64,000 bases of DNA, from the NCBI GenBank assembly GCA_964583975.1, contig CAZOXU010000009.1, positions 3,195 through 67,194 on the forward strand, read 5' to 3'. This DNA comes from an uncultured Planctomycetales bacterium. GTDB taxonomy: Bacteria; Omnitrophota; Gorgyraeia; Zapsychrales; Fredricksoniimonadaceae. Numbering within the stretch: position 1 is the first letter of the stretch; each line of letters starts with the position of its first letter. The notes beneath the pieces are model-generated. The model saw only the letters and a list, made by a program, of their open reading frames with translations. It was not told the DNA's origin and ran no database searches. Shown here piece by piece: positions 3,001 to 52,523 of this stretch. A program made the position numbers and the translations under genes.

Positions 3001-3525
3001 GCTAAGGATCGAGTTAAATTAGCTCAGGCAGTTTTTCAATATGTCGATATCCTTAATCAGCGAAAGATAGCTTACAATATTCTTTTTAACAAAACTGAAG
3101 TTATTGTCTTTCCTCGACAGTATCAAAAAGTTAATTCCTTGGGGACTGGAACAGCAGTTTTAGAATTGAGTGGAGAATTTATTGTTAACGATCAAGAAAC
3201 ACTCAATCAAACTACGGAAGATGTAATTAAGCAAAACTTACAGGAAGCAACGATTGCAGAAGATTTATTTAAGGAAACTGTGACAGCATTGGTTGACAAA
3301 GCTATGTTAAGTAATACCGGTGGTATCGATCTAACCCCAGCCAAATTAAACCTGCAAACAAATAGCAATGGCGTAATCTCTGCCAAAGGCGGACCAGCCT
3401 CTGACTGGAAATTCAACCTAGATCCTGCCATGCTAAAGCAATTACAAAATTCCCCAGGCTTTGTACCAGTGATCATCAATATCCAGCCATTAAGAGATCT
3501 GAAATCCTTCCTTGATGTTGTCTAA
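1..3525 (+). CDS. Giant protein, 5' partial (frame open to position 1; first in-window start TTG at 70). The C-terminal ~210 aa is a GDP-L-galactose/GDP-D-glucose phosphorylase (VTC2/GDPGP1)-like HIT domain.
   Basis: 1151-aa ORF with no upstream stop before the window edge. The C-terminal region aligns motif by motif with plant VTC2: FNPDGFNFNK, GHFLLVPQ, YNSIAAFASLNHLHFQGFYY (HxHxQ GalT-branch HIT motif), ILFNKTEVIVFPRQ and AVLELSGEFIV. Confidence 0.7.
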   Translation, partial: LTQQADQPLAVFDTKEAFWRAAPLSGQILELERTPIQTVYIATMDREVALRTQLEAEAESNRIFNRQSQLVIVDDSTQEILKANQKTLQEMYKRFGWQSWHITPQLREKEYDQYTDAILTRYQEALDLNQLRPQIQNILETKRIISDGKIDRVALRKYLEKNVFNHISGVRNRTLLKAKGESTIMSMDDDAPPETYVVAKSQREQIRKDRLEVREQQIHQLLQEAGDLLGETIDTEEQLYRVLANLNGNMNSRVEVLIQRYFGYNPVNRAGRIPLAMGEIQKRDQQMLDTNGWGAYLGISHQRYHGLMTPSAPYMLTMSDFVYSKPRTEKKQGAFEVLPVNVHRMGDLVGKKAGETDLPLMGSPLDGKGDLRGTMAQPVEAKQRDALGQRTITYVAAPFVEDQDTSAVAQFIRYLQIEHKKAANLQHANQSALLVGGVGGFVADTYVIFNRAALSNQTVSPSIGRDLRLEEPPYIAWVKSPMLKNSVTVAYSPVAGGQQREIAERLYDISRQDYTEVVGVVARASYEQAVRRFYQELANRLDLQQEDKHYERLRLLGQMYIQEAELFKTTPEQQESLDYQRNARAMMLGELSSQKANLEKQLVIDPTNLQLAQVIRDIDLIFVQYAESFTFYHAKKSSDTDFGPKTDSSDFFYRIKRQGNRLFWERVIPYLEVVPERGVKVARKTQWLKHGTNESGQIMIDSLIAKENFEIEGGRAIVLSEIPKEGEELIVPVLFNQMREEFISNVEKKARDQIISDGELMLFWPDLVDVAIPWREEAKDLVRKQAEDDKIIARIRALSEQKQAAGPDEKTILGSSFYQLPNRRVQKGKFSLQFNPDREKRRPSQYQGGGIQQPFNPDGFNFNKISSEEIISEGVLQGMQVSTIVNARPFAEGHFLLVPQRQANHPQYLDKPEYIQMVLERMANADKDNLKITYNSIAAFASLNHLHFQGFYYGGDLEGQPLFNNGQLPVEKTPREKISILNDVQISKVLDYPAHALAFTAKDRVKLAQAVFQYVDILNQRKIAYNILFNKTEVIVFPRQYQKVNSLGTGTAVLELSGEFIVNDQETLNQTTEDVIKQNLQEATIAEDLFKETVTALVDKAMLSNTGGIDLTPAKLNLQTNSNGVISAKGGPASDWKFNLDPAMLKQLQNSPGFVPVIINIQPLRDLKSFLDVV

Positions 3526-12727: not shown

Positions 12728-13000
12728 ATGATCCAAGAATTACCTATTCGAACTCCGCCGTTTACTCCGTTCAAATTTAAGAGATATTTTGAATCTAAAA
12801 ATAATAAGATCAGGATTTTTGGTTTATGCGAAGTGACAGGCAAGAATTTTGAAATATTTGTGCCGGTGGAAGGTTTTTTTGTCTATTTGCAGGGCTTTAA
12901 AAATATTGTAGAGGCTTTGTTTAGTTCTTCCAAAGAAGAGCGTGAGTTTATTTTGACAGGAACTTCGCCAGAAGGCTATAGAAGTCGTAGAGATCAATGA
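12728..13000 (+). CDS. Hypothetical small protein (90 aa)
   Basis: Good RBS (GAGGAG). Its stop overlaps the start of the downstream helicase. Confidence 0.35.
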   Translation: MIQELPIRTPPFTPFKFKRYFESKNNKIRIFGLCEVTGKNFEIFVPVEGFFVYLQGFKNIVEALFSSSKEEREFILTGTSPEGYRSRRDQ

Positions 13001-14385
13001 TGGATGCTTCCAAAGATTTTAAAAGTGTAGGTTTAAGTAAGGCCATGCTTGATAATCTCAAGTCCCTTGGTTATTTGGAGATGACACCTATTCAGGAAAA
13101 GGGCTTGCCATTTATTTTAAGTAAGCGGGATTTTATTGGTCAGGCTAATACTGGCAGCGGTAAAACAGCTGCCTTTGCTTTAGGCATCCTAGCCAAATTA
13201 GATTTAACCATTCCGATGCCACAGGCCCTGGTGTTGGTTCCTACGCGCGAATTAGCCGAGCAGGTAGCTAATGAAATCCGTCGCCTGGCACGCTTTACCA
13301 GTAATATTAAGGTGCTGACCATCTGCGGCGGTTCAGAAGAACGTCATAAGGTTAAGTCGCTCAAGCAGGGTGCGCATATCATTGTGGGAACTCCTGGTCG
13401 CATCACCAAATTACTCAAAACAGGAGTACTTATTACCAGTGATCTTAAGGTCTTGGTATTAGATGAAGCCGATCGTTTGCTAGAAATGGGATCAATTGAG
13501 GAAATAAACCGTATTGCCTCATTTACGCCCGTGGATCGCCAAACCATGTTGTTTTCTGCGACATTTCCTCACGGGATTAAAACATTAAGCGCCAGCCTGC
13601 AGGAAGATGCAGCGCAAGTGACTATTGACTCGCAACACCAAAATACAACCATCAAACAATTATTTTTTAAAGTCGAAGATCAAAAGAACGATGCCTTGTT
13701 GCGTCTTTTGGGACACTATAAACCAGAATCCTGCATTATTTTTTGTAATAGCAGGGAAGCGTGTAACACTGTCTCAGGATTGTTACGTACTAAAAAAATA
13801 GATTCTTTACAGATGCATTCAGATTTAGAGCAAGCTGACAGAACACTTATTTTAATCAAATTTGATAATAAAAGTTGCCGTATTATGGTTGCGACTGACT
13901 TAGCATCGCGTGGTCTGGATGTGAAGGATGTAGGTAGTATCATTAATTACGATTTGCCAAGCGACCCCGAGCTCTATGTTCATCGCATTGGAAGAACCGG
14001 ACGAGCGGGGCAAGAGGGGCTGGCGCTGAGCTTGTATACCCATAAAGAACGGGCCACTCTGAGAACGATGGGCACTTATTTAAAAACTGAGTGTATGATT
14101 AAAGAATTAAATGAATTGCATCCTATTCAACTGAGAGCTGACCGTCTTGTGGCAGAAATGTCGACCATTTATATTAGCGGCGGCAGGAAGGATAATATCC
14201 GTCCTGGCGATATCTTAGGTGCTTTGACCAAGGAAGCGGGGCGCAAAGCCCAGGACGTCGGGAAGATTCATATTTTAGAAGTTAATAGTTATGTAGCCAT
14301 CACCCCTGAAAAACAAGAAGAAGCAATCGAGCGACTGAACGCAGGGAAAATTAAAGGCCGAAAGTTTAGAGTTGGAAAAGCTTGA
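12997..14385 (+). CDS. dbpA: ATP-dependent DEAD-box RNA helicase, DbpA-like, with a C-terminal RNA-binding domain
   Basis: Motifs GSGKTAAF, PTRELA, DEAD, SAT and HRIGRTGRAG, plus a C-terminal DbpA RBD (GGRKDNIRPGDILGAL). Confidence 0.85.
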   Translation: MMDASKDFKSVGLSKAMLDNLKSLGYLEMTPIQEKGLPFILSKRDFIGQANTGSGKTAAFALGILAKLDLTIPMPQALVLVPTRELAEQVANEIRRLARFTSNIKVLTICGGSEERHKVKSLKQGAHIIVGTPGRITKLLKTGVLITSDLKVLVLDEADRLLEMGSIEEINRIASFTPVDRQTMLFSATFPHGIKTLSASLQEDAAQVTIDSQHQNTTIKQLFFKVEDQKNDALLRLLGHYKPESCIIFCNSREACNTVSGLLRTKKIDSLQMHSDLEQADRTLILIKFDNKSCRIMVATDLASRGLDVKDVGSIINYDLPSDPELYVHRIGRTGRAGQEGLALSLYTHKERATLRTMGTYLKTECMIKELNELHPIQLRADRLVAEMSTIYISGGRKDNIRPGDILGALTKEAGRKAQDVGKIHILEVNSYVAITPEKQEEAIERLNAGKIKGRKFRVGKA

Positions 14386-21077: not shown

Positions 21078-21320
21078 ATGCAGGTAGGAAGCGTTAGTAA
21101 ACTATTTCAAGATAAAGAATATGGTTGTATTAGAACCCAGAATGGGCAAGACATTCATTTTCATAAGCACTGTCTTTGGAATATTAAATTCTCAGAATTA
21201 ACCGAAGGTCAAATTGTAGAGTTTGAAATGCAGCCGTCTTATAAAGGCTATCTTGCCTTTCATATTCGCCCATGTCCTTTAGAAGTTTGTAGTAATGACA
21301 AGAAAGAGACTTATGCCTAA
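21078..21320 (+). CDS. Cold-shock-domain (OB-fold) protein, divergent
   Basis: CSD-like pattern [22 protein letters not shown]...[12 protein letters not shown]. About 200-nt leader upstream. Confidence 0.5.
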
Positions 21321-21534
21321 AGAAGAAGCCATTGAAGTAGAAGGAATTATTTCCAAAGCATTATCGAATGCTCAATTCACCGTGGAAATGCAAAACGGGC
21401 ATTTGATTACCGCTTATCCAGCTGGGAAAATGAAAAAGTTCTTTATCAAAATCCTTCCTGGAGACAAGGTCACTGTGGCCTTATCACCTTATGATTTAAA
21501 AAGAGGAAGAATTACATTTCGACATAAAGCGTAG
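21313..21534 (+). CDS. infA: Translation initiation factor IF-1
   Basis: [13 protein letters not shown]...[39 protein letters not shown] matches the IF-1 consensus. I set the start at the MPKEE Met. Confidence 0.85.
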
Positions 21535-22597: not shown

Positions 22598-24499
22598 ATG
22601 GCACTGATTAGTCTACAAGAGATTACCTTGGCCTTTGGCGGCCCCTTATTATTTGAGCGATTAAGCCTGCAATTAGAAGCTGGTGAGCGGGTGGCTTTGC
22701 TCGGTCGCAATGGGGTCGGCAAAACCACCTTAATGAAGGTCATGGCTGGGCAAGTTGAAATTGATGGTGGTGAAATTGTCTACCAAAAAGGCATTAAGGT
22801 CACCCATCTGCCTCAGGAAGTGCCCCATGATATTAAAGGAACTGTCTTTGATGTGGTCTTTGAGGGCTTAGGCGAGCGAGCCAAACTCCTTAGTGACTAT
22901 CACCATGTCACTCATCGTTTACATACTGAACATACACCCGCTTTAATGCAAGAGCTTGATCGTTTACAAACTGAAATCGATAAAACCAATGGCTGGGACT
23001 TGGAGAATGAAGTTGAGTATGTCCTTTCCCAGATGAAATTAGACGGCGAGGCAGACTTTGAAAAACTCTCGGGAGGACAGAAACGACGTACCCTCCTGGC
23101 TCGGGCTTTGGTGGTCAAGCCTGAGATCCTGCTTTTAGATGAACCTACCAATCATTTGGATATCGATACCATCAATTGGCTGGAAGAATTCCTAAAAACC
23201 TACCCAGGCACCTTATTTTTTGTGACCCATGACCGTATGTTCATGACGCATTTGGCTACAAGGATTGTGGAGCTGGATCGAGGCAAGATTTATAACTGGT
23301 CGTGTGATTATGCGACATTTCTAGAACGTAAGAAGATGGTGTTGGATATCGAGGCAGCCCAGCGTGCAGATTTTGATAAGAAACTGGCTGAAGAAGAAGT
23401 TTGGATACGTAAAGGCGTTAAGGCGCGTCGTACCCGCAATGAAGGTCGTGTCAAAGCGCTCGAGCGTATGCGTGAAGAAAAGAAAAGCCAGCGTCAGATG
23501 ATAGGCAAGGCACGTATTGTGGCCCAGGAAGCTGAGAATTCTGGCCATCTGGTTATTAAAGCGGCGCATCTAGGGTTTCATTATGGTGAGCAGTGTATTA
23601 TCCGGGATTTCTCTACCCAAATCATGCGTGGCGATAAGATTGGGGTGATTGGGGCTAACGGTAGTGGCAAAACAACACTGCTGAGAATTCTTTTAGGACA
23701 ATTAGCACCGGAAAAAGGCAAGGTACGTTTAGGAACAAATTTAGAGGTGCTTTATTATGATCAATTGCGTGAACAATTAGATGAAGAAAAAACAGTCATT
23801 GAGAATGTGACTAAGGGCAGTGACACGGTGACCATCAATGGCAAGCCGCGCCACGTGATTGGCTACTTGCAGGATTTTTTATTCACGCCAGATCGGGCGC
23901 GTACGCCAGTCAAGGTGCTTTCAGGTGGTGAACGTAATCGACTTTTTCTAGCTCGTCTTTTTACTAAACCTTCTAATTTCTTGGTCATGGATGAGCCAAC
24001 CAATGATTTGGACATTGAGACACAGGAATTATTAGAAGAGCTGTTGATGGAGTATTCGGGCACCTTGATTTTGGTTAGTCATGATCGGGCCTTCTTAAAT
24101 AATGTGGTCACTTCAACCGTTGTGTTAGAAGGTCAAGGCGAAATCTATGAATATGCCGGTGGTTATGATGATTGGTTAGCCCAACGAAAGTCTCAAGCGA
24201 AGCTATCCGTAGCTGCACCTAAAGCAGAAAAGCCAGAGCCCAAGCCTGCCAAGGTCAAAGATATCCGTAAGCTTTCCTATAAAGAAGAAAGGGAATTAGA
24301 GCGTTTGCCAGAACAAATTGAAAAGCTCGAGGCAGAACATGAAGATCTGTATGCAAAATTAGCTGATCTAGGTTTTTATCAAAAAGATCCTAAGGAAGTA
24401 GCTAAAGCGCAAGCAAGAGTTGAGACTATTGGAGAAGAGCTCTTAAGGGCTTATGAACGTTGGGAATATCTAGAATCTTGTAAAAAGTTAAGTACATAA
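22598..24499 (+). CDS. uup: ABC-F family ATPase (Uup-like) with a C-terminal coiled-coil/DNA-binding tail
   Basis: Two ABC cassettes (GRNGVGKTT, LSGGQKRR, DEPTNHLD; GANGSGKTT, LSGGERNR, DEPTNDLD), no TM domain, charged C-terminal tail. Confidence 0.85.
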   Translation: MALISLQEITLAFGGPLLFERLSLQLEAGERVALLGRNGVGKTTLMKVMAGQVEIDGGEIVYQKGIKVTHLPQEVPHDIKGTVFDVVFEGLGERAKLLSDYHHVTHRLHTEHTPALMQELDRLQTEIDKTNGWDLENEVEYVLSQMKLDGEADFEKLSGGQKRRTLLARALVVKPEILLLDEPTNHLDIDTINWLEEFLKTYPGTLFFVTHDRMFMTHLATRIVELDRGKIYNWSCDYATFLERKKMVLDIEAAQRADFDKKLAEEEVWIRKGVKARRTRNEGRVKALERMREEKKSQRQMIGKARIVAQEAENSGHLVIKAAHLGFHYGEQCIIRDFSTQIMRGDKIGVIGANGSGKTTLLRILLGQLAPEKGKVRLGTNLEVLYYDQLREQLDEEKTVIENVTKGSDTVTINGKPRHVIGYLQDFLFTPDRARTPVKVLSGGERNRLFLARLFTKPSNFLVMDEPTNDLDIETQELLEELLMEYSGTLILVSHDRAFLNNVVTSTVVLEGQGEIYEYAGGYDDWLAQRKSQAKLSVAAPKAEKPEPKPAKVKDIRKLSYKEERELERLPEQIEKLEAEHEDLYAKLADLGFYQKDPKEVAKAQARVETIGEELLRAYERWEYLESCKKLST

Positions 24500-24548
24500 A
24501 GTTTGATTCTATTGGATTTTATCTTTATAGTAGATAAATAGATGAAGA

Positions 24549-24622
24549 TTCCTCGGCTAATGGCCTCGGAGATAAACCCGCTTGCCGGCAGGCAGGTTCG
24601 TCCCGTTAAGTTTCGGGACTCA
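24549..24622. repeat. GC-rich intergenic repeat element, copy A. Contains the palindrome CTTGCCGGCAGG and a TCGGCTAATGGCCTC loop motif.
   Basis: Shares TGCCGGCAGGCAGG with 32546-32559 and the TCGGCT..CCTC motif with the copies at 32588-32607 and 59158-59180. Also has the hairpin GTCCCG(n8)CGGGAC. Confidence 0.5.
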
Positions 24623-24637
24623 TTTAGGAGGAAGGTT

Positions 24638-25201
24638 ATGGATGACAGTTTAGCTAAACGTGGACACAGTCTTGAAGAGCTCTTCTTTAGAGAAAGATCG
24701 GCCCAGCTGATTGCCCAACGTCAAAAACTTGAACAAATGCAAAAAACTAAGGAAGATTTGGCCAAGGTGTCTCGGATCCAAAATCCTAAGGTTTTAGATA
24801 AATTAGTCGAACTTGAGATTTCACCCAGTGTTTTAGCATCACTGGCTATTCTTCCTTTGGTAGAGGTGGCCTGGGCTGATGGTCATTTAGATCAGAAAGA
24901 AAAAGATGCTGTTTTAGCTGGTGCAGCTAAAGGCGGAATTACCGAAGGTTCTGTTGATTACGATCTTCTTAATACTTGGCTTAAAGAGCGACCATCTCCT
25001 AAATTCTTAGAGGCCTGGCTTCATTTTATTGCAGGACTTCGTGAAGTTTTATCTCAAAGTGAATTAGATGCTTTAAAATCTGAATTGCTCGCCCGAGCTC
25101 GAAAAGTAGCTGAGGCCCAAGGAGGTATCTTAGGAGCTTTAAAGATATCTAAAGAAGAGCAGGCTGTTTTAAAGAAGATGGAAGATGCCTTCAAACGTTA
25201 A
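24638..25201 (+). CDS. TerB-like (tellurite-resistance/DjlA-N-type) domain protein
   Basis: LPLVEVAWADGHLDQKEKDAVL TerB-type helix pair. I set the start at the Met with a GGAGG RBS. Confidence 0.4.
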   Translation: MDDSLAKRGHSLEELFFRERSAQLIAQRQKLEQMQKTKEDLAKVSRIQNPKVLDKLVELEISPSVLASLAILPLVEVAWADGHLDQKEKDAVLAGAAKGGITEGSVDYDLLNTWLKERPSPKFLEAWLHFIAGLREVLSQSELDALKSELLARARKVAEAQGGILGALKISKEEQAVLKKMEDAFKR

Positions 25202-25208
25202 ATATTGA

Positions 25209-25487
25209 ATGTCTGATCCGTCACAATACCAACAATGGATGATGGAACAAGAAGCGCTCTGGGAAGCACGATGCACACGCTGTGGTGCTTGTTGTGGTTC
25301 TTTAGAAGATCCTTGCGAGAATCTCCGACGTAATGAAAATAATCAGTATTACTGTGCGGTCTATGAACGTCGTTTTGGTGTATGGCATACCATCTCTGGT
25401 AAAGAACTACGCTGCGTTCCTATCCGTCAGAAACTAGCCTTGGGTCAAAGTTGGCCTGGAGATCAACACTGCGGTTATAAACAATGA
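25209..25487 (+). CDS. CxxCxxCC zinc/iron-chelating domain protein (YkgJ/UPF0153-like)
   Basis: CTRCGACCGS motif plus additional Cys. Its stop overlaps the start of the next gene (ATGA). Confidence 0.5.
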   Translation: MSDPSQYQQWMMEQEALWEARCTRCGACCGSLEDPCENLRRNENNQYYCAVYERRFGVWHTISGKELRCVPIRQKLALGQSWPGDQHCGYKQ

Positions 25488-26374
25488 AATATTATTCCCC
25501 CCAACGACAAGATGATGCCCAAACTCGATTTCTTTCGGGTGTGCCGATTGATCCGAATCCACGGATACGCTTGGAGAATGGGTCTGGCGAATTGACCATG
25601 CGAGCGATGGATTTGATTTGTCCGATTGGTATGGGACAGCGTGGATTGATTGTGGCGCCGCCAGGATGTGGCAAAACAACCTTCTTAAAGCATTTGTGTC
25701 AGTCGATTCTTAAAGGTTACCCAGATATAAAATTGCATTGTCTTTTGATCGATGAACGCCCTGAAGAAGTCACTGATTTTACCCGCTCGGTAAAAGCCGA
25801 TGTGCGCAGTTCCTCTTCTGACCAAAGCTACGAACATCATTTGCAAACAGCCGATCAATTGATGCGCGATGTTTTCCAGGAAACAGCCCAGGGCGGCAAT
25901 GTCATGGTAGTGATTGATTCTTTGACCCGTCTGGCTCGGGTGCATAATGCCCAAAGGCCCTCAGGTGGCAGAACCCTTTCAGGAGGTGTGGATGCACGAG
26001 CCATGGAAGTGCCGAGGCGTATTTTTGGTTATGCCCGTAAGATTGAAGGTGGTGGCTCGCTGACAATTTTAGCAACCATCCTGGTTGAAACGGGTAGCCG
26101 TATGGATGAAGTTATTTTTGAGGAATTTAAAGGAACGGGTAATATGGAAATTGTGCTCTCGCGCGAGATAGCTAATCATCGTATTTTTCCAGCTATTGAT
26201 ATTGCCAAGAGTGCAACGCGTAAACAAGAGCTTTTATTTGAGGCCAAGCAGTATCAGCAGCTTGAGAAATTTAGACGTTCGCTCGCAGGGCTTAATAAGC
26301 TCGAGGCAGCCCAAGCGTTAGTTGAAAAGCTAAAAGCTAATCCTACCAACGACGGATTATTGAGTACGTATTAA
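25484..26374 (+). CDS. rho: Rho-family RNA-dependent ATPase lacking the N-terminal primary RNA-binding (OB/CSD) domain
   Basis: Aligns with E. coli Rho from about residue 120 to the end: P-loop [30 protein letters not shown]-loop region, SLTRLARV, R-loop GGVDA...[10 protein letters not shown], and [29 protein letters not shown]. Confidence 0.75.
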
Positions 26375-26377
26375 TTA

Positions 26378-26590
26378 TTATTCGTTTTCTCTTCGAACAT
26401 CCATCGTAACAATTTCTCCACCTCTGATCTTTAGGCATATGACAATAGGTGCGCAGCAGACTTCACAATCCACAATGAGTTCTTGGGTAGAGCCGGCTGT
26501 AAGGTCAAGCAAAAGTTCGTTGTCTTGACTGCAGTAAGGACAAGCAAAGGGTTCAAATTGTTCTAAAGACATACGTATGCAGTGTAACAT
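26378..26590 (-). CDS. CPXCG-motif cysteine-rich small protein
   Basis: FACPYCSQDNELLLD...ELIVDCEVCCAPIV matches the CPXCG family pattern. Confidence 0.55.
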   Translation of the reverse strand: MLHCIRMSLEQFEPFACPYCSQDNELLLDLTAGSTQELIVDCEVCCAPIVICLKIRGGEIVTMDVRRENE

Positions 26591-26768: not shown

Positions 26769-29700
26769 ATGAAACGTTCGATCGCCATAGGCATCCTTAT
26801 AAGCTTTGTTACTACTATCATCTGTCCAGCCCGTAGCTATGCTGCGCCAGGCCAGTTAAACCTACCTGTTCCTGGAACTATGGTGAATTTGAGCCAAAGC
26901 TTTGCACCCGTGATTTTAAAGGGTGTCAGAGTTTATCCCGATAATCCCTTACGTTTTGATTTTATTCTTGATACCGGAGATTCCAAATTAAAGGGCCAGG
27001 CGCTTAAAGATGAATCCAACCGTTTAATCAAATATTTCTTAGCCTCTTTGACTGTTCCAGAAAAGGATCTGTGGGTGAATCTTTCGCCATATGAAAAAGA
27101 TCGGATTGTTCCTGAATCTTTTGGTGTCACCCAAATGGGCCGCGATCTTTTGGCTGAGGATTATATTCTCAAGCAAATGACCGCTAGTCTTATCTATCCT
27201 GAAGATGAATTAGGTAAGAAGTTTTGGAAGAGAATCTACGAAGAAGCACAAGCCAAATATCACACCACCAATATCCCAGTAAATACCTTTAATAAAGTTT
27301 GGATTGTTCCAGAGCACGCCAGTGTTTATAAGAATGGTACCTCAGCATTCGTCACCAAGGCGCATTTGAAGGTTATGTTAGAGGCTGATTATTTAGCGAT
27401 GAATAAGAATGCCGTGTCTGCACAGGCGCAGGATGCAAATCAAATCGGCTCCCAAATCGTCCGTGAAATTGTCCTACCAGCTCTTGAAAAAGAAATTAAT
27501 GAAGGTCAAAACTTTATCCAACTTAGACAAATCTATAATTCTCTTATCCTAGCCATTTGGTTTAAACGTAATCTGAAGGAAAGTGTGCTTGGTAAAATCT
27601 ACATGGGCCAAAATAAAGTTGGTGGGGTAGATATTCAAGATAAGAATGAAAAACAAAAAATTTATCAATCGTATCTCGAAGCCTATAAAAAGGGCGTTTA
27701 TAACTATATTAAGGAAGACCGTGATCCGGTTACTCAAAAAACAACGCCTCGTAAATATTTCTCTGGTGGAGCTTGGATGTCGCGAGCAACAAATGTTTTT
27801 AGCGATGAAGCGACATTGGGTGATGTGTCGATCGATCCTGATCACGCCATGCTGGTCAAAGCTAATTTAAAAGCCGAAGAAGAGAATATTTCTGCCCCAA
27901 AAGATCGTGCTATGATTGCAGATATTCCTCGGGTGTTGCAAGATAAAGATGTTCCGGCATTCAGAAGTATTCGAGATCGAATTTTGTGGCTTTCTACTCG
28001 GATGATTGAAGAGGCTAATCGTAACAAAGAAGATGTGAATGTGGGCGGACATCAGGCTGCAGCTGCTTCGTCTTTGGATATCATGATGGCCTTAGAATTA
28101 TTTACTATGAATGGCCCTGATTTTGTGGCTCATAAACCTCACGCAGGTCCGGTTTATCATGCAATTCAATACCTTTTAGGAAAATTATCTAAAGAAACTT
28201 TAAGCCGCTTACGTGAAAATGCAATTTCTCCAGATTATAGTTCTCGTTTACAAGAAACAATTAAGGCTCTTCCGCCAGAAGCTGCTGAGCAATTCAGGGT
28301 TTTTCAGTCAAAATTATTAGAAGATCTTCCGCTTAGCGCCAATAGTGATTTAGATAAGGAAGGACTCCATTCATATCCAGGAATGGCAGATCCAGATCGA
28401 GTGCTTATTCCCACAGGTTCAGTGGGTCTTGGTCCTGCTGCAACAATTGCATTAGCACTCTCCTACAAATGGATGAAAGATCATGGGTATAATGTTCCTG
28501 ATCCACGGTTTTATGCTGTGGTTGGAGATTCTGAATTTGGTGAAGGTAATTATCAGGAAATACTGCCTTTAGTGCAGCAATTTGGTCTTAAAAATATAAC
28601 TCACATTTTGGATTATAATCGTCAATCCTTGGATGGTAATACCCAACAATGGCGTTTACAAAATATTAAAGATCGTTATGCAGCCAATGGTTGGAAGATC
28701 ATTGAGTTAAAGTGGGGCAGTAAGCTTAAGGCAGCTTTTGCTGATGGCGGCCAGAAATTCCGAGAAGTGATGGATGCTTTGCCTCAGGAAGAATATCAAG
28801 ATATGACGGGTAAAACTGGAGCAGAGATTCGAGAATATTTGATCAATAAAGAAACTTCATTAGCTAGATTTTTGGAGAAATATAATGATGAACAGCTTTA
28901 TGATCTATATACGGATTTGGCAGGACATGATTTGCAGGTATTAACTTCAGCATTGCAAGAAGCAAAGATCAGCGGACAATCGGTTGCTATTATCGCCCAT
29001 ACAATTAAGGGAAAAGGTTTAAGGCCATTGATTGGTCAGCCTGGCAATCATTCGATGCGTTTAACTCCAACTGCACTGGAAGATTTGCGTAAAGAAATGG
29101 GAATATCCGAAGTTGAACCTTTTCCTGCCTTTGATGCAGAATCTGTAGAAGGTAAGCTATTAAATAATCTAAAAGATAGGATCGATTTAGAACGTCAGGC
29201 TGCAGCAGAACTTATCAGTTCTAATTCTGGTGCTAATAAAACATTTGATGTAAGTAATATTCCAAGTCGTATAACACCATCTTCTGCGATAGTTCCTACA
29301 GGACTCTCCAATGTGTCTACCCAGGTTTGGTTTGGGTATATCATTTCCATGCTTCGGGGAATTTCTCAAAAGTCTGAGGCTGAATTAACTGATGAAGAAC
29401 GTTCTTGGTTGCCGATTGCTAAAAGAATTGTAACCATTTCTCCGGATGTGGCTACTTCCACAGGTGTTGGTAAAAAAGGAAAATTGGCAGGGTATGGACC
29501 TGATAGCTTAGAGGATACACATATTCGTCTGGGTATTGAAGAAATGAATGCTCTGACGGTTGCTGCAGCTTTAGGAAAAATGAGAGATTTCATGGGCCAA
29601 TCAATTCTGCCCGTTGTAACCATTTATGACATGTTTTTGTTTCGTCGCGCCTTAGACCCAGCATTTTACGCTCAATATTGGAAATCGCGTGTTCTTATGG

Positions 29701-31055
29701 TTGGAACACCATCAGGATCAACTCTTGCACCAGAAGGAGCTCAGCACCAGTCGATTACTTCAGCCGTTATTGGCGGGGCTTTGCCGAATACCATTGTTTG
29801 GGATCCAGCTTTCGGTGTTGAACTTGAATACATATTAGGCGATGAATTAAAAAGAACCTTAAGCGGTGACTATGAGGGAAGAAATGTAATCTATTTGCGA
29901 GGCTCAACCTTGGATCAAAGTCGTAAGGAATTAGCCGCTCGTTTGGCTGTTCAAAAACGTTTTAAAGGCCGTGAGATTTCAGAGAAGAATTTGCCGGAGG
30001 AATGGTCAGAAGACCTTTTAAAAGGCGGATATCGTTTGGTTGATTATACGGGTTACGCGGCTTATGATCCTAATGTGAATGTGGTTAATATTATTACCGT
30101 TGGCCCAATGGTCAAAGAGGCGCTCAGGGCTTCCGATAAACTTTTAGAACGAGGTATTTATGCGAATGTGATTGTAGTGAGTAGTTCATCGCTTTTACAT
30201 GGGAATTTAGGAAGAAAAGATAATTATCAACATCTAAGGAAATTGATTCCTGTTAACGAAACGTTTCTTACTCCAACAGTTGCTGTTGCTGATGCTTCTC
30301 CTGATTATTTGGCTGGGATCGCCGGTATTCTTGGTTTAAATTTGGAAATGCCAACCTTAGGTTTGCGTAAAAATGGAGTTTCAACTCGAGGAACAGCTCG
30401 TATTTATATTCATCATGGAATTTCGTTTAAAAATATTGCTGAAACAGCTTTGGCCGAGATTCGCCATAGAGATAGTGGTCATAGTCCCAAGGTTCAGATG
30501 ATGCAGCAGTGGGCTAGTAAACAATGGCAGGCAAAAATATATGCTGAAATAGCTCGTCTTGAAGATCTTTTAGAGAAAACATCATCTTTTGGTGGGGCAT
30601 ATATTCGTCAACAAATTGCGTTTTATGAAGAATTGCTAGAGAATGGAACTTTAGATGCAGCCATGAATGCCGCATTAAATGACCGATTAACAGAGTTGCG
30701 GTCTGTAATGGAAACAGCAGGGGATCTTACAGTGCGAACTATTTTGCAAAATGAAATTGATGGATTAGGTCATTTTGTGTCTGAAAAAGATTCTGCGCAA
30801 ACCGTAACCAAGAAACAAGAGCTTGGAGGTATCGACTTAAACGCAGCTAAGATGAATATTAAAGAAGAAGGTAATGATATTTCCGCCAGAGGCGGATCCG
30901 CCTTTGGCGGAAAACTTCCACCGGTGGACTTAAAAGCCTTTGAAAACAAGAATTTCAACGGCTTTACTCCAATTATTATTGAAATTGTTCCTATCAAAGA
31001 TCTTCCCATGGTTCTTGGAGCATCGCAGCCGCAAGAGAAACTTGCTTCAGTCTAG
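26769..31055 (+). CDS. Giant (1428 aa) signal-peptide protein containing a complete pyruvate dehydrogenase E1 (AceE-type, homodimeric TPP) domain, flanked by ~350-aa N-terminal and ~190-aa C-terminal extensions
   Basis: Sec signal MKRSIAIGILISFVTTIICPARSYA-AP. E1 motifs: VGGHQAAAASS, EGLHSYPG, GSVGLGPA, TPP-binding GDSEFGEGN...LDYNRQSLDG, and IIAHTIKGKG, plus a transketolase-like C-terminal domain. Confidence 0.75.
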   Translation: MKRSIAIGILISFVTTIICPARSYAAPGQLNLPVPGTMVNLSQSFAPVILKGVRVYPDNPLRFDFILDTGDSKLKGQALKDESNRLIKYFLASLTVPEKDLWVNLSPYEKDRIVPESFGVTQMGRDLLAEDYILKQMTASLIYPEDELGKKFWKRIYEEAQAKYHTTNIPVNTFNKVWIVPEHASVYKNGTSAFVTKAHLKVMLEADYLAMNKNAVSAQAQDANQIGSQIVREIVLPALEKEINEGQNFIQLRQIYNSLILAIWFKRNLKESVLGKIYMGQNKVGGVDIQDKNEKQKIYQSYLEAYKKGVYNYIKEDRDPVTQKTTPRKYFSGGAWMSRATNVFSDEATLGDVSIDPDHAMLVKANLKAEEENISAPKDRAMIADIPRVLQDKDVPAFRSIRDRILWLSTRMIEEANRNKEDVNVGGHQAAAASSLDIMMALELFTMNGPDFVAHKPHAGPVYHAIQYLLGKLSKETLSRLRENAISPDYSSRLQETIKALPPEAAEQFRVFQSKLLEDLPLSANSDLDKEGLHSYPGMADPDRVLIPTGSVGLGPAATIALALSYKWMKDHGYNVPDPRFYAVVGDSEFGEGNYQEILPLVQQFGLKNITHILDYNRQSLDGNTQQWRLQNIKDRYAANGWKIIELKWGSKLKAAFADGGQKFREVMDALPQEEYQDMTGKTGAEIREYLINKETSLARFLEKYNDEQLYDLYTDLAGHDLQVLTSALQEAKISGQSVAIIAHTIKGKGLRPLIGQPGNHSMRLTPTALEDLRKEMGISEVEPFPAFDAESVEGKLLNNLKDRIDLERQAAAELISSNSGANKTFDVSNIPSRITPSSAIVPTGLSNVSTQVWFGYIISMLRGISQKSEAELTDEERSWLPIAKRIVTISPDVATSTGVGKKGKLAGYGPDSLEDTHIRLGIEEMNALTVAAALGKMRDFMGQSILPVVTIYDMFLFRRALDPAFYAQYWKSRVLMVGTPSGSTLAPEGAQHQSITSAVIGGALPNTIVWDPAFGVELEYILGDELKRTLSGDYEGRNVIYLRGSTLDQSRKELAARLAVQKRFKGREISEKNLPEEWSEDLLKGGYRLVDYTGYAAYDPNVNVVNIITVGPMVKEALRASDKLLERGIYANVIVVSSSSLLHGNLGRKDNYQHLRKLIPVNETFLTPTVAVADASPDYLAGIAGILGLNLEMPTLGLRKNGVSTRGTARIYIHHGISFKNIAETALAEIRHRDSGHSPKVQMMQQWASKQWQAKIYAEIARLEDLLEKTSSFGGAYIRQQIAFYEELLENGTLDAAMNAALNDRLTELRSVMETAGDLTVRTILQNEIDGLGHFVSEKDSAQTVTKKQELGGIDLNAAKMNIKEEGNDISARGGSAFGGKLPPVDLKAFENKNFNGFTPIIIEIVPIKDLPMVLGASQPQEKLASV

Positions 31056-31179: not shown

Positions 31180-32523
31180 ATGACAAAGCAAAACAACCAT
31201 GAACACAATGTCGCACCGGATAACCAGAACGGATTTTTTGGTTTAGGAATTGCCCCCAAGATTCTGGAAATCTTAGAGCGATTAAAGTTTAAATCACCTA
31301 CCCCTATTCAGCGTAAAGCTATTCCCATTGCCATTGAAGGTAAGGACGTTATTGGAATCGCCCAAACAGGGACTGGAAAAACCCATTCATTTGCCATACC
31401 AATGATCCAACAATTGGCCCAAAGAGATACAGTAGCGTTAGTTTTGGCCCCTACCCGAGAATTAGCTGTTCAGATTGATGAAGCTGTGAAAGTTTTAGCT
31501 CATCCTTTTGGGATGAGAACAGCTTGTTTAATTGGCGGTATGCCCATGCGCCCTCAAACCGAAGCTCTTCGCCGACGTCCACAAGTGATCATTGCCACTC
31601 CTGGTCGATTAATTGACCATATGGAAAACCAGAATTTCTCTTTAAGCAAAATAGGTATGTTTGTCATCGATGAAGCTGATCGTATGTTGGATATGGGTTT
31701 TGCGCCTTCAGTTGAGCGCATATTTAAAAGCATGTCCAAGGAACGTCAAACCATGCTATTTTCAGCGACCATGCCACAAGAAATTATGCGTTTGATTAAT
31801 ACGCATATGAAGCTTCCTGTGCAAATTGAAATGGCTCCTCCAGGAACCACGGCAGAAGGGATCACTCAAGAGCTTTATATTGTTAAACACGAAGCTAAAA
31901 TTGCTTTGTTAGATAAAATTCTAGCTAGCCGTCAAGGTTCGGTACTTTTATTTGCCCGTACCAAGCATGGGGCCCGTAAAATCACCAAATCTATCCGTGA
32001 TATGGGACACCGTGCTACCGAAATTCATTCTGACAAATCGATGTCGCAACGCGCTGATGCCTTAAATGGTTTTAAAGCGGGCCGTTTCCGTATTTTGGTT
32101 GCAACCGACATTGCTTCTCGAGGGATTGATGTGAGTAAGATCGAAACTGTTATCAATTTTGATCTACCGGATGATGTGGAAAATTATGTGCATAGAATTG
32201 GTCGTACTGGTCGAGCAGGAAGTAAGGGAGTGGCTATTTCTTTTGCGACTCCAGACCAGAAACGTGATGTTGATAATATTGAGAAATTAATCCGTAAACA
32301 ACTTCCTATCCTTAAACATCCGGATGTTCCTGCAGCTGATTTTCAACACGGGCACAGGGGAGGATCAGGCTCATCATTTCGTCCACGTCGTGCTGGTGGT
32401 GGAGCGAATTTTGGCCGTCATCACAGGTCTTCGTCATCGTCTTCTCACAAGAGTGGCTCTTCTCATAAATCTCCTCATAGCCATTTAAAGCTAAAAAGAG
32501 AAATTCAAAGAAGAACTAAGTAA
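31180..32523 (+). CDS. rhlE: ATP-dependent DEAD-box RNA helicase (RhlE-like) with a Gly/Ser/His/Arg-rich C-terminal tail
   Basis: Motifs AQTGTGKTHSF, PTRELA, DEAD, SAT and HRIGRTGRAG. Low-complexity basic tail. Confidence 0.8.
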   Translation: MTKQNNHEHNVAPDNQNGFFGLGIAPKILEILERLKFKSPTPIQRKAIPIAIEGKDVIGIAQTGTGKTHSFAIPMIQQLAQRDTVALVLAPTRELAVQIDEAVKVLAHPFGMRTACLIGGMPMRPQTEALRRRPQVIIATPGRLIDHMENQNFSLSKIGMFVIDEADRMLDMGFAPSVERIFKSMSKERQTMLFSATMPQEIMRLINTHMKLPVQIEMAPPGTTAEGITQELYIVKHEAKIALLDKILASRQGSVLLFARTKHGARKITKSIRDMGHRATEIHSDKSMSQRADALNGFKAGRFRILVATDIASRGIDVSKIETVINFDLPDDVENYVHRIGRTGRAGSKGVAISFATPDQKRDVDNIEKLIRKQLPILKHPDVPAADFQHGHRGGSGSSFRPRRAGGGANFGRHHRSSSSSSHKSGSSHKSPHSHLKLKREIQRRTK

Positions 32524-46224: not shown

Positions 46225-47880
46225 TTGAAAAGACCATTCAGGTTTCTGTGTATTTTATCGATGGTTTTTGCTGTTTTTCTGCACCAATCCCCATTGCATG
46301 CTTTAGACGCTGCAATGCCTCTCGAATCGAAGAAAATATCTTTAGACTACAAGAATGCTGAATTGACCGATGTGCTCAAAGCCATGTCTTATTCTTACAA
46401 TCTTAATATCGTGGTGGCTAAGGACATTACCGGCAAAGTATCAGCCCAATTAAAAGACGTGACCGCTGAAGAAGCTTTAAATGCTATTTTGACCGGCAGC
46501 AGTTATGCCTATATGCGTAAAGGTGACATTATTTACGTCCAGTCTAAAGAAGAGATGGATCTGGTGACGGAAACCCTCGTTTTGAATTATATTCCCCTCG
46601 AACAAGCCCAAACGTTATTAAGTGGTGCTATCACTCGATTAAAAGCTAACATTCAGGTCAATAAAGATGCCAATGCTTTGGTGGTGACAACCAATCCAGG
46701 AGATTTAGAAAAATTAAAAGTGATTTTGCAGGGCATTGACGTTCCTCCGATTCAGGTCTTAATTGAAGCCCAGATCGTCGATATTAATAGATCTGATATT
46801 CAACAGATTGATAGCGCTGTTAGTCTGATTTATTCAGCTAATCAAGTGGGAGGGACGTTCTCCAAATTTAGTCCCAACGTTACAGCAGGATCTGCCTCTA
46901 ATACAGCAGCGACAAGCACATCTAACACTTCATCTTCATCCACATCTTCCACTTCAGGAGATCAGGGTGTGTTTTCTTTTGCTAATAACAATTATTCTCA
47001 AATGTCTATTACAGCCTTAGTTAATCAACATAAAGCACGTGTTATCGCTTCTCCGTCGATTGCAACTCTTAATGGCCATGAAGCTAGCATTGTGATTGGG
47101 GAGAAATATCCTGTTGTGACCTCAACGTCTTCGGCTGGAGGGACGGGTGGCAGCATTGTCAATCAAACTACCACATCTTATATCGATATTGGAACCAAGC
47201 TTAAAGTCACTCCTCGCGTTTCACCAGATGGTTGGATTACTATGAAAATTGAACCCGAAGTTTCTTCCGTGTTAGGTGTAACGTCCAATGGAAATCCTAA
47301 CATTGCGACCCGTTCAGCCAATACAGAGGTTCGGGTGAGAGATAATGAAACGATCGTGATAGGGGGCCTAAAAAGTAAAAGTGATTTGCGAGATAAAAAT
47401 GGTATTCCAGGCTTAAAAGATATCCCCATTCTTGGAGCTTTATTTCAAAGTCATAATAAATCCTTGGTTGACGGGGAATTGACTGTTTTAATTACACCAC
47501 ATGTCATCCCTATGGTCCATCCAGAGAAAGCAAAAAATCCTCCACCAAGGAAAGTTATGACAGGTGAAGATAGCGTACTGGTCCATAACATCTTGAATTA
47601 TATTGATACTCTCGAGGCAGATAGGTCTAAGGATCGGGCTAAAAATCTTTACCTAAGCGGGGAACAAATTAAAGCTTACAGAATGCTTTTGCAGGAATTT
47701 CCTGCTTCGGGTAAAGGAGATTATTGCCTTTATAGAATTGCTTTGAAATATGCTAAGGACTTTGGTAATTGCAAGGCAGCTAAAGAAACTTTTGCGGAGT
47801 TACAGGAGTTGTTTCCCACAAGTTCTTTTATTCCTGTGACAGAATCTTTGGTCGATGCTTGTACAGCTGTGCAGCTTTAA
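46225..47880 (+). CDS. pilQ: Type IV pilus secretin PilQ-like (TTG start)
   Basis: Signal peptide, N-terminal secretin-N domains, an S/T-rich linker, and a C-terminal secretin domain (ATLNGHEASIVIGEKYPV..., GGLKSK...IPILGALF). Confidence 0.8.
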   Translation: MKRPFRFLCILSMVFAVFLHQSPLHALDAAMPLESKKISLDYKNAELTDVLKAMSYSYNLNIVVAKDITGKVSAQLKDVTAEEALNAILTGSSYAYMRKGDIIYVQSKEEMDLVTETLVLNYIPLEQAQTLLSGAITRLKANIQVNKDANALVVTTNPGDLEKLKVILQGIDVPPIQVLIEAQIVDINRSDIQQIDSAVSLIYSANQVGGTFSKFSPNVTAGSASNTAATSTSNTSSSSTSSTSGDQGVFSFANNNYSQMSITALVNQHKARVIASPSIATLNGHEASIVIGEKYPVVTSTSSAGGTGGSIVNQTTTSYIDIGTKLKVTPRVSPDGWITMKIEPEVSSVLGVTSNGNPNIATRSANTEVRVRDNETIVIGGLKSKSDLRDKNGIPGLKDIPILGALFQSHNKSLVDGELTVLITPHVIPMVHPEKAKNPPPRKVMTGEDSVLVHNILNYIDTLEADRSKDRAKNLYLSGEQIKAYRMLLQEFPASGKGDYCLYRIALKYAKDFGNCKAAKETFAELQELFPTSSFIPVTESLVDACTAVQL

Positions 47881-52151: not shown

Positions 52152-52523
52152 ATGAAAATTAGAAAAATTTTCAAAAGCAGAGGCTTTACTCTCTTGGAAA
52201 TTGTACTTTCCACCGTTCTCATTACGATTGGTGTGACTGCAGTTGTTCGAGTTATTTCAACAGGCATTTATACAGACAATGCTAGTGAAGGGAAAATCAT
52301 CGCGTTAAATTATGCCGTACAGAAGATGGAAGACCTATTAAATACTTCTTATAGTAGTCTTTCTTCTAGTTCAGATACGCCTACCACAGGTTTTACAAGA
52401 ACTTGGACAATCACTGATAATACAAATTATAAGACGCTCAAGGTGACAGTCAGTTGGTATTATAAAAGAGTTCAAATGTCGGTTAATTTAGCGAGCTATC
52501 TTGCCAATGTTACTACTTCCTAA
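52152..52523 (+). CDS. Minor (pseudo)pilin, PilV/PilE-like
   Basis: Leader ...KSRG/FTLLEIVL. Confidence 0.65.
   Translation: MKIRKIFKSRGFTLLEIVLSTVLITIGVTAVVRVISTGIYTDNASEGKIIALNYAVQKMEDLLNTSYSSLSSSSDTPTTGFTRTWTITDNTNYKTLKVTVSWYYKRVQMSVNLASYLANVTTS

Follow-up and report, generated by a model that had tools for sequence, protein, structure and literature searches.

In models of Rho loading, the N-terminal primary binding site (PBS) locates rut sites, drives ring closure and touches RNA polymerase (RNAP). The window, the 64-kb stretch of DNA analysed here, contains an ORF on the forward strand (25484..26374) that encodes 296 aa and comprises the C-terminal RecA-type motor domain of Rho only (hereafter named short Rho, sRho). 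This raises the question of whether the gene is a specialised Rho paralog or a degenerate one, the two options left by the original prediction, and of how such a motor might engage RNA. sRho can be regarded as a natural experiment on the abilities of a Rho motor without its loader.

A Rho motor domain without the N-terminal domain

sRho spans the equivalent of E. coli Rho residues ~118-419 and begins with a 15-aa N-terminal tail of net charge +1. Its membership of the Rho family is far above chance. The NCBIfam model NF006886 matched with E=1e-109 over model positions 128-411 of 413 and scored 367 bits, above the cut-off of 315, while TIGR00767 gave 353 bits, below its cut-off of 509, and the PF00006 profile matched with E=1e-20. 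A phmmer search of the PDB aligned residues 16-292 with residues 133-412 of E. coli Rho (E=3e-81). The AF2 model was confident over the full length (pLDDT 90.8), and its Foldseek superposition on E. coli Rho gave a TMq of 0.92 and an rmsd of 1.3 Å over 283 columns. The motor residues K184, T185, E211, R212, D265, R269, T323 and R366 were kept in the window protein, and Walker A (GKT), E211, R212 (the Arg valve), D265 of Walker B and the Arg finger R366 were invariant in 32/32 short Rhos including this one. The secondary RNA-binding site, consisting of the Q-loop (K283, T286) and the R-loop (T323, K326), was also present with the conservative changes K283R, T286S and K326R, and the latter two occur in canonical Omnitrophota Rho as well. 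Apart from M219F, the residues of the bicyclomycin pocket are conserved too. The original prediction of a Rho family member with intact motor motifs was confirmed: each motif quoted in it occurs in the translation, and the protein begins at about E. coli residue 118.

A profile check for the missing region had been proposed, and neither Rho_N (PF07498) nor Rho_RNA_bind (PF07497) was detected in sRho at E<=0.1; a tblastn search with full-length Rho, covering all frames of the 64-kb window, likewise failed to find an N-terminal domain (NTD). The in-frame TAA (25478-25480) located two codons 5' of the sRho start and the overlap of the sRho ATG (25484-25486) with the TGA (25485-25487) of the upstream 92-aa ORF, forming ATGA, were both seen in the sequence as described. 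The accompanying claim that no simple frameshift restores an NTD also held and applies equally to a sequencing error, because the same truncation is seen in more than 85 relatives whose upstream genes are unrelated. Such proteins are automatically annotated as 'transcription termination factor Rho', a name that hides the missing N-terminal domain.

A conserved short-Rho family alongside canonical Rho

sRho represents a conserved, real gene family. The members are 284-329 aa long with 70-90% identity and are mostly labelled Candidatus Omnitrophota; every one of the best 120 database matches to the window protein was a short form, of 284-327 aa and 72-100% identity, and the short-Rho-specific motif was confirmed on 270 metagenomic stretches. 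The window protein, with FLSGVPIDP...[17 protein letters not shown], fits the family signature defined here, F-L-x-G-x-P-[IV]-D-P ... [18 protein letters not shown]-terminal segment. Alignment of short and canonical Rhos showed that the linker is the start point of all short forms. In the tree, the short Rhos formed a single long-stemmed clade that falls outside that of canonical Omnitrophota Rho, and at 23 positions where canonical Rho is invariant they carry a fixed substitution specific to their clade. Their N-terminal tails measure 28 aa (median), with Arg making up 17% and a median net charge of +4, and the distant tail-plus-CTD representatives P0354 and P0360 display very basic tails. 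A scan of contigs with the whole protein retrieved mostly canonical Rho, owing to the universal motif MDEVIFEE, together with one short-Rho locus (L001).

The dN/dS values across the short Rhos were 0.03-0.07, showing strong purifying selection on the motor, and the catalytic and RNA-channel residues have been held over the long term in a motor-only clade alongside normal Rho. The option of a degenerate gene was refuted by these values and by the retention of all catalytic and RNA-contact residues. Truncated length alone speaks for a degenerate remnant or for a sequencing or assembly artefact hiding a fused NTD; the selection values, the hundreds of independent instances with the same start region, the lack of anything resembling an NTD in all frames searched and the confident full-length model refute this reading.

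The other option, a specialised paralog, was supported. Canonical full-length rho and sRho were found on one contig in each of two relatives (L157 and L168), which derive from independent datasets and have unlike gene orders, so that the short form is a paralog of canonical Rho, with ~50% identity to the co-resident canonical CTD. These two relatives sit in another sRho subclade than the window protein. Proximity of the two genes is not the rule, since sRho was absent within 10 kb of canonical rho at two of the three canonical loci examined (L167 and L170). No canonical rho was found by tblastn in the 64-kb window, and the canonical-rho neighbourhood (coaE-rho-rpmE-prfA...), sought as a scar of rho loss, shared no synteny with the window or with the sRho loci.

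Gene neighbourhood of sRho

The sRho gene is surrounded by three small ORFs. The 92-aa ORF (25209..25487, + strand), whose stop overlaps the sRho start, contains the predicted CxxCxxCC cysteine cluster (CTRCGACC, within CTRCGACCG); it reached 20 bits with NF003504 (YcgN family) against a cut-off of 150 and had no Pfam match. Further upstream, between an ABC-F gene and the CxxCxxCC ORF, lies a 219-aa ORF (24542..25201, + strand), whose probable true start at 24638 is preceded by AGGAGG. Downstream, a 70-aa ORF (26378..26590, - strand) is convergent with sRho, the stop codons being 3 nt apart. The labels given earlier to the two latter ORFs fared differently: the CPXCG zinc ribbon was corroborated by PF14255 (Cys_rich_CPXCG; 52.7 bits, cut-off 25.2, E=4e-14), whereas the resemblance of the 219-aa ORF to TerB/DUF533 was weak and below threshold (PF05099; 15.2 bits, cut-off 24.4, E=0.028).

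The CxxCxxCC protein, or else the TerB-like or CPXCG neighbour, had been proposed as an adaptor or regulator of sRho, and co-occurrence in relatives had been named as a check. The ATGA overlap is real, and L171, whose sRho is 90% identical, retains both this junction and the convergent CPXCG gene. However, it is the only relative with the same junction: among the 85 other short-Rho loci, homologs of the CxxCxxCC, TerB-like and CPXCG proteins were found at 0/85, 0/85 and 2/85, respectively, and in relatives at 79-85% identity the upstream gene is an unrelated one, encoding Sod_Cu, PHP, MORN, ADH or a 300-aa protein. Besides, overlaps of 4-8 nt are common in the window (5188/5191, 16238/16241 and 58118/58121 on the + strand; 33666/33673 on the - strand), and the upstream gene abuts sRho within 10 nt in 39/61 short-Rho genes, so the overlap says little about function. 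An adaptor or regulatory role for these neighbours is thus highly improbable. The CxxCxxCC ORF is a neighbour of the immediate lineage and no conserved partner, and the ATGA coupling probably reflects local gene packing in a compact genome rather than functional pairing. Between 21.5 and 27 kb, predicted promoters and terminators were no more numerous than in shuffled sequence, and an Rfam search of the window returned no match.

Other genes recur at a distance from or next to sRho in the family. A kdpABCDE operon together with a secreted 350-aa protein is near sRho in about 48% of loci, and about half of the loci have sRho as the final gene of kdpABCDE-F1, 2 nt past the preceding stop, an arrangement that implies conditional co-expression. 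This linkage suggests that RNA-motor activity has an unrecognised tie to K+ or ionic stress. An Uup-like ABC-F ATPase (22598..24499, + strand; ABC_tran x2, ABC_tran_Xtn and ABC_tran_CTD) precedes the TerB-like ORF in the window, and ABC-F genes lie <=4 genes from sRho in 14/41 loci >6 kb, recurring across subclades. A divergent cold-shock-domain (CSD) ORF of 80 aa (21078..21320, + strand) is located 4.2 kb upstream of sRho; it matched PF00313 with E=2.9e-9 (37 bits, cut-off 27), and its RNP1 motif is degenerate (KEYGCI). CSD genes were present at 21/85 sRho loci vs 0/81 canonical-rho control loci, and in loci >=8 kb at 14/43 vs 0/71 (Fisher p=2.5e-7, a value inflated by the phylogenetic non-independence of the sRho loci). 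They are placed 158-221 nt upstream of sRho in L133, L135, L141 and L144 and 201 nt downstream in L130, and the gene order in the kdp subclade is sRho-ABCF-CSD. The end of the window CSD ORF is overlapped by infA (21295..21534, + strand; translation initiation factor IF-1, PF01176 E=4.5e-21). A DEAD-box RNA helicase is encoded at 31180..32523 (+ strand), and a DEAD-box helicase adjoins sRho on the two contigs with both rho genes too. Between sRho and this helicase lies a 1428-aa ORF (26769..31055, + strand) whose N-terminus resembles a signal peptide and which combines a ~340-aa N-terminal domain with a core similar to transketolase/PDH-E1. The ~340-aa domain recurs near sRho in seven loci (L096, L099, L110, L116, L125, L144 and L158), and in the first three of these a large ORF is directly 3' of sRho.

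Possible roles of sRho and comparison with known systems

We cautiously favour the view that sRho is a functional, motor-only Rho paralog acting as an auxiliary, ring-shaped RNA translocase whose loading does not depend on rut recognition. The family would have arisen when rho was duplicated long ago and one copy lost both N-terminal subdomains (the helix bundle and the OB fold with its primary binding site) but retained the full ATPase/translocase core and the secondary RNA-binding site, while the coexisting canonical full-length Rho presumably carries out rut-dependent termination. sRho may assemble into a Rho-like hexameric ring that uses ATP to pull RNA through a central Q-loop/R-loop channel. 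Lacking the PBS, it would be unable to select C-rich rut sites, so non-specific loading is proposed. In most family members loading could be aided by the short basic Arg/Pro-rich tail, which is nearly absent in the window protein, or by a partner; the candidates offered for recruitment of a PBS-less motor are the basic tail, mixed rings with canonical Rho and a CSD protein in trans. The suggestion that a basic tail loads RNA is weaker for the window gene because its tail has just 15 aa and a net charge of +1. The role of sRho may be that of an auxiliary RNA-remodelling or termination motor for particular conditions. In E. coli Rho, an occupied PBS favours closure of the ring and loading of RNA, and a PBS-less homohexamer may for this reason be a poor motor.

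Alternatively, sRho may be a modulator subunit, forming mixed hexamers with canonical Rho that have fewer PBS clefts and tune or damp rut-dependent termination when sRho is induced, for instance with the kdp operon. The co-residence of canonical Rho on the same contig in L157 and L168, the identity of the interface nucleotide-pocket residues (P-loop, R366, R347 and R353) with those of canonical Rho, and the conditional co-expression implied by the terminal position in kdpABCDE-F1 are in line with this idea, and hetero-hexamers have already been proposed in PMC11347177 for N-terminally truncated second Rho copies. Yet ~50% identity and 23 fixed substitutions fit an independently evolving ring as well as a shared interface, and a mere poison subunit could do without so tightly conserved a Q-loop, R-loop and set of catalytic residues, although these might be required if a mixed ring hydrolyses ATP sequentially. 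A modulator subunit is a conceivable but doubtful explanation.

Two other proposals concern how termination or RNA binding might be organised around sRho. A split Rho, in which a stand-alone CSD protein docks on the sRho ring and replaces the OB-fold RNA binding in trans, is suggested by the enrichment of CSD genes at sRho loci in arrangements varying by subclade, by the CSD-like OB fold of the Rho PBS itself, by the CSD ORF upstream of sRho in the window and by a faint match of the L144 CSD to Rho_RNA_bind (E=0.18). Apart from the inflated p-value, this proposal is weakened by the neighbouring CSDs being plain 66-aa CspA-type proteins without a docking extension and by the window CSD being divergent, with a degenerate RNP1, apparently paired with infA and five genes removed from sRho (infA, an oppositely oriented response-regulator gene, ABC-F and the TerB-like and CxxCxxCC ORFs lie in between); CSD, infA, DEAD-box and ABC-F genes together could merely mark a cold-shock/RNA-metabolism neighbourhood. 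We regard it as quite unlikely. That sRho is the sole Rho of its organism, with canonical rho lost in the window subclade and termination left to the PBS-less motor, would agree with the 64 kb devoid of canonical rho or an NTD and with the coexistence contigs coming from another subclade; but a highly conserved canonical Rho is widespread among Omnitrophota, sRho forms an old clade of its own and is no recently truncated ortholog, and the absence of canonical rho covers 64 kb of genome, which makes a sole Rho unlikely. The broader scenario of a split or re-wired Rho with a CSD supplying RNA in trans, or of a sole Rho in some Omnitrophota lineages, deployed with kdp and cold-shock-type RNA-metabolism genes, is similarly unlikely; if true, it would mean rut-independent, condition-specific termination or RNA remodelling.

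With the auxiliary motor as the preferred reading, sRho can be compared with the known members of the superfamily. Like canonical Rho (E. coli, PDB 1PV4/3ICE/5JJI; NF006886 and TIGR00767), it has the P-loop, Glu211/Arg212, Asp265, the Q-loop, the R-loop and R366, with 46-52% identity across E. coli residues 133-412. Unlike canonical Rho, it lacks residues 1 to ~117 and thereby both the N-terminal helix bundle and the OB-fold primary RNA-binding site, leaving no rut-recognition surface and no NTD contacts to RNAP/NusA. FliI/T3SS ATPases and the catalytic subunits of F1/V1 ATPases (PF00006) share the ASCE/RecA-type hexameric ATPase fold with sRho but not the Rho-specific Q-loop and R-loop motifs, and a FliI-type identity was rejected at 92 bits at most vs 367 for the Rho model NF006886.

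Second, shorter Rho copies have been described as 'Group B' (D'Heygere et al. 2013, cited in PMC11347177) and as 'Type 4'/subtype 2d (PMC11347177). These copies and the NF041509 Rho2 resemble sRho in being extra, N-terminally reduced forms beside canonical Rho, notably in the PVC group, with conserved catalytic residues; the Group B/Type 4 proteins, which lack Rho_N, keep the RNA-binding (OB) and ATPase domains, whereas sRho is without the RNA-binding domain. The NF041509 model ('paralog_Rho2, short form') includes an N-terminal RNA-binding part of ~72 residues before the motor that has no counterpart in sRho, and identity with Rho2 was rejected since the window protein scored 310 bits vs a cut-off of 628 and matched model positions 73-358 only. 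PMC11347177 also counts 'Rho-like' single-domain sequences from 421 species, and by its definition sRho, with only one Rho domain detected, is 'Rho-like' and not a 'functional Rho'. For such 'Rho-like' proteins, its main text offers neither a characterisation nor a clade definition, and neither selection nor genomic context is analysed there; the term 'Omnitroph' is absent from it. NTD-less paralogs are likewise not mentioned in a 2025 review of Rho.

Identity and conservation of the short Rho

The 296-aa product of the ORF at 25484-26374 (+), hereafter short Rho, belongs beyond doubt to the Rho family, as shown by profile, PDB sequence and structure comparisons. The NCBIfam Rho model NF006886 matched it with E=1e-109 over model positions 128-411 of 413, a PDB sequence search aligned E. 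coli Rho 133-412 with residues 16-292 of the product (E=3e-81), and the AlphaFold2 model (pLDDT 90.8) superimposed on E. coli Rho chains with a TMq of 0.92 and an rmsd of 1.3 A over 283 columns. The predicted absence of the N-terminal RNA-binding domain was borne out: no Pfam match to Rho_N or Rho_RNA_bind was obtained in the product, and tblastn over all frames of the 64 kb, with full-length Omnitrophota Rho and E. coli Rho as queries, revealed no similarity to the N-terminal domain (NTD). The ORFs of the original prediction were recovered exactly; the ATG of short Rho (25484-25486) overlaps in an ATGA the TGA (25485-25487) of a 92-aa CxxCxxCC ORF (25209-25487, +, carrying CTRCGACCG), and an in-frame TAA lies ahead of it at 25478-25480.

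The best 120 database matches were each 284-327 aa long and 72-100% identical to the window protein, with names, where given, of the type 'Candidatus Omnitrophota/Omnitrophica ... transcription termination factor Rho'. A metagenome scan added 270 further stretches confirmed by a short-form-specific motif (…[17 protein letters not shown]), 80 of whose loci were retrieved. Aligned with canonical (full-length) Rho, a set of 32 of the database matches all start in the linker between the NTD and the C-terminal domain, at about E. coli residue 118-130, and the sole sequence ahead of the linker is a variable tail. Tail length and net charge have medians of 28 aa and +4, Arg and Pro account for 17% and 13%, and the tail of the window protein (15 aa, charge +1) is among the shortest.

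Pairwise dN/dS among short Rhos was 0.03-0.07. The motor-defining residues (K184, T185, E211, R212, D265, S266, R269, R272, T323, G337, R347, R353 and R366 in E. coli numbering) are all invariant, the Q-loop and R-loop lysines are swapped conservatively (K283R, K326R), and 23 clade-specific substitutions are fixed. Neighbour-joining of motor domains grouped all short forms as one monophyletic clade on a long stem, excluded from the canonical Omnitrophota Rho clade. The short Rho of the window is a genuine, conserved paralog of Rho reduced to the motor. A degenerate gene, which the original prediction had left as a choice, was rejected, as was a one-off, in view of the family-wide truncation, the low dN/dS and the invariant motor residues, and a pseudogene or artefact is extremely improbable.

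In the short Rhos of two relatives whose contigs also carry canonical rho (L157:9632-10621 and L168:20196-21083), the residue preceding the catalytic Glu is Asn instead of Asp (E. coli D210), giving LLVNERPEEV and LLINERPEEV versus [10 protein letters not shown]; the other 32 aligned short Rhos and canonical Rho have Asp there without exception.

Coexistence with canonical Rho

Canonical Rho is widespread in Omnitrophota, with a length of 415-478 aa, Rho_N and Rho_RNA_bind domains and 79-94% conservation. Both forms occur on one contig in two independent cases. The JGI contig L157 (20.3 kb) carries coaE, canonical rho (420 aa), prfA, prmC, murA, trmD, rplS, rnhB, guaA and short Rho (329 aa), and L168 (NCBI MAG GCA_964478015.1, 30.8 kb) repeats this block except that a DEAD-box helicase separates guaA from short Rho (295 aa). 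Both short copies share 70-71% identity with the window protein but just 51% with the canonical Rho on their own contig; short Rho is thus a paralog of old origin that coexists with canonical Rho, which supports the specialised paralog that the original prediction had entertained. The canonical rho locus is highly syntenic within this Omnitrophota subclade (L167, L168, L170 and L157), in the order gatA-gatB-...-tsaD-polA-glgA-coaE-rho-(rpmE)-prfA-prmC-murA-rpsP-trmD-rplS-rnhB-guaA, and only two of these four loci have short Rho inserted, following either guaA or the DEAD-box gene.

Canonical rho was absent from the 64-kb window by tblastn. It probably lies elsewhere in the same genome. The short Rhos of L157 and L168, the two contigs with both forms, fall in a different subclade of the tree from the window's. 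That the window's lineage lacks canonical rho, leaving short Rho as its sole Rho, is unlikely, and this question is separate from that of mechanism.

Genomic neighbourhood

The original prediction proposed three neighbours as candidate adaptors or regulators, namely the coupled CxxCxxCC protein, a TerB-like ORF (24542-25201, +, 219 aa, with the formerly proposed start at 24638 preceded by AGGAGG) and a CPXCG ORF (26378-26590, -, 70 aa) convergent with short Rho. The CPXCG assignment is solid (PF14255, E=4e-14), the TerB match fell below threshold (E=0.028), and profile searches gave the CxxCxxCC ORF only a faint YcgN-family match. When the neighbours were compared by tblastn with 85 other short-Rho loci (824 kb), homologs of the CxxCxxCC and TerB-like ORFs were found in none and those of the CPXCG ORF in two. 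The upstream genes of relatives with 79-85% identity are unrelated (Cu/Zn-SOD, PHP phosphoesterase, MORN protein, zinc ADH and a 300-aa protein), and only L171, a 90% identical relative, shares the last 14 nt (…CGYKQ*), the ATGA junction and the convergent CPXCG gene. Genes overlapping by 4-8 nt are frequent in the window's genome, and short Rho starts at most 10 nt from the preceding same-strand gene, whatever its identity, in 39 of 61 cases. The coupling is therefore real, but it occurs only among the closest relatives and says nothing about function, and a metal-binding adaptor role, unsupported by this census, is very unlikely.

Clustering of the ORFs of all loci yielded three recurring associations, with a kdp block, an Uup-like ABC-F ATPase and a CspA-type cold-shock domain (CSD) gene. 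The kdp block ends in short Rho in about 48% of non-redundant loci (L089:185-10849; also L096, L100, L106, L115, L118, L124, L149, L152, L166 and others), in the order kdpA-kdpB-kdpC-kdpD-kdpE, a protein of 344-351 aa bearing a signal peptide and matching NHL weakly, sometimes a DUF347 membrane protein, and short Rho, usually after a spacing of 2 nt. These loci form a derived subclade in the tree, and no kdp genes occur in the window; finding a Rho-type motor in one operon with genes for K+ uptake is unexpected. Among the 41 loci exceeding 6 kb, 14 have the ABC-F gene within four genes of short Rho; in the window it is found three genes upstream (22598-24499).

With two DEAD-box RNA helicases (12997-14385 and 31180-32523, one of them DbpA-type with a C-terminal RNA-binding domain), short Rho, a CSD ORF, infA and the ABC-F gene, the region is rich in RNA metabolism. 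No Rfam family reached its gathering score on either strand of window 1-64000. A 1428-aa ORF (26769-31055) combines a signal-peptide-like start, an N-terminal domain of about 340 aa that recurs near short Rho in seven other loci, and a transketolase/PDH-E1-like core; its last segment of about 65 aa shares 46% identity with the C-terminus of ORF 70-3525 (1151 aa, without a Pfam match) and may act in sorting or anchoring. A type II secretion/type IV pilus-like cluster with a secretin (46225-47880) and a T2SSE ATPase (48309-49934) includes a 745-aa ORF (52501-54738) in which Laminin_G_3 is combined with a Cys-rich region of STIG1 type and a weak match to the Hint domain.

Putative activity and relation to known Rho forms

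In short Rho the Rho motor is complete and under strong constraint, the secondary RNA-binding channel is intact, and the primary binding site (PBS) is missing. As a best estimate, which we regard as somewhat probable, short Rho would assemble into a Rho-like ring translocating RNA with ATP, would be unable to recognise rut sites, and would serve as an auxiliary motor for RNA remodelling or termination, either non-specific or partner-guided. Mixed hexamers of short and canonical Rho that tune termination, already suggested for other truncated Rho copies (PMC11347177), are a rather doubtful possibility.

A third reading, in which a CSD protein provides the OB fold in trans, starts from the presence of a CspA-type CSD gene in 21 of 85 short-Rho loci and in none of 81 canonical-rho control loci (14/43 versus 0/71 for loci of at least 8 kb; Fisher p=2.5e-7, inflated by shared ancestry). 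The link is of note, since the PBS that short Rho has lost is an OB fold resembling a CSD; the match of the L144 CSD to Rho_RNA_bind (E=0.18) is a faint echo of this resemblance. The arrangement varies by subclade: the gene lies directly upstream in L133 (4088-4285), L135, L141 (333-530) and L144 (9541-9738), 201 nt downstream in L130 (11044-11241), and in the order sRho-ABCF-CSD in the kdp subclade; a further example is L085:8295-8495. In the window, a divergent CSD ORF of 80 aa (21078-21320; PF00313, E=2.9e-9; RNP1 motif KEYGCI) precedes infA, whose start it overlaps by 26 nt. Provision of the fold in trans is quite improbable; this model or the sole-Rho model, if true, would clearly raise the significance of short Rho.

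Compared with canonical Rho, short Rho is predicted from its sequence to work like the C-terminal domain, but it lacks two defining features of the family, Rho_RNA_bind and Rho_N, and it scores above the curated cut-off of NF006886 and below that of TIGR00767. Membership of the 'Rho2 short form' (NF041509) was rejected (310 versus 628 bits), as was that of 'Type 4/Group B' Rho, in which the RNA-binding domain is still present. A few other proteins outside the main clade that consist only of a basic tail and a motor were present among the 50%-identity representatives: P0354 (61% identical), P0357 (Candidatus Sericytochromatia MAG), and P0360, a cluster on 4.4-4.9 Mb contigs with a very basic 45-aa Arg/Gly/Gln tail. 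The motor-only architecture is therefore not unique to Omnitrophota. Candidatus Sericytochromatia is a relative of Cyanobacteria, which to our knowledge are generally without Rho. PMC11347177, whose main text does not contain 'Omnitroph', counts 421 species with a single-domain 'Rho-like' class whose discussion is confined to the supplement, and short Rho fits the definition of this class as it is worded there.
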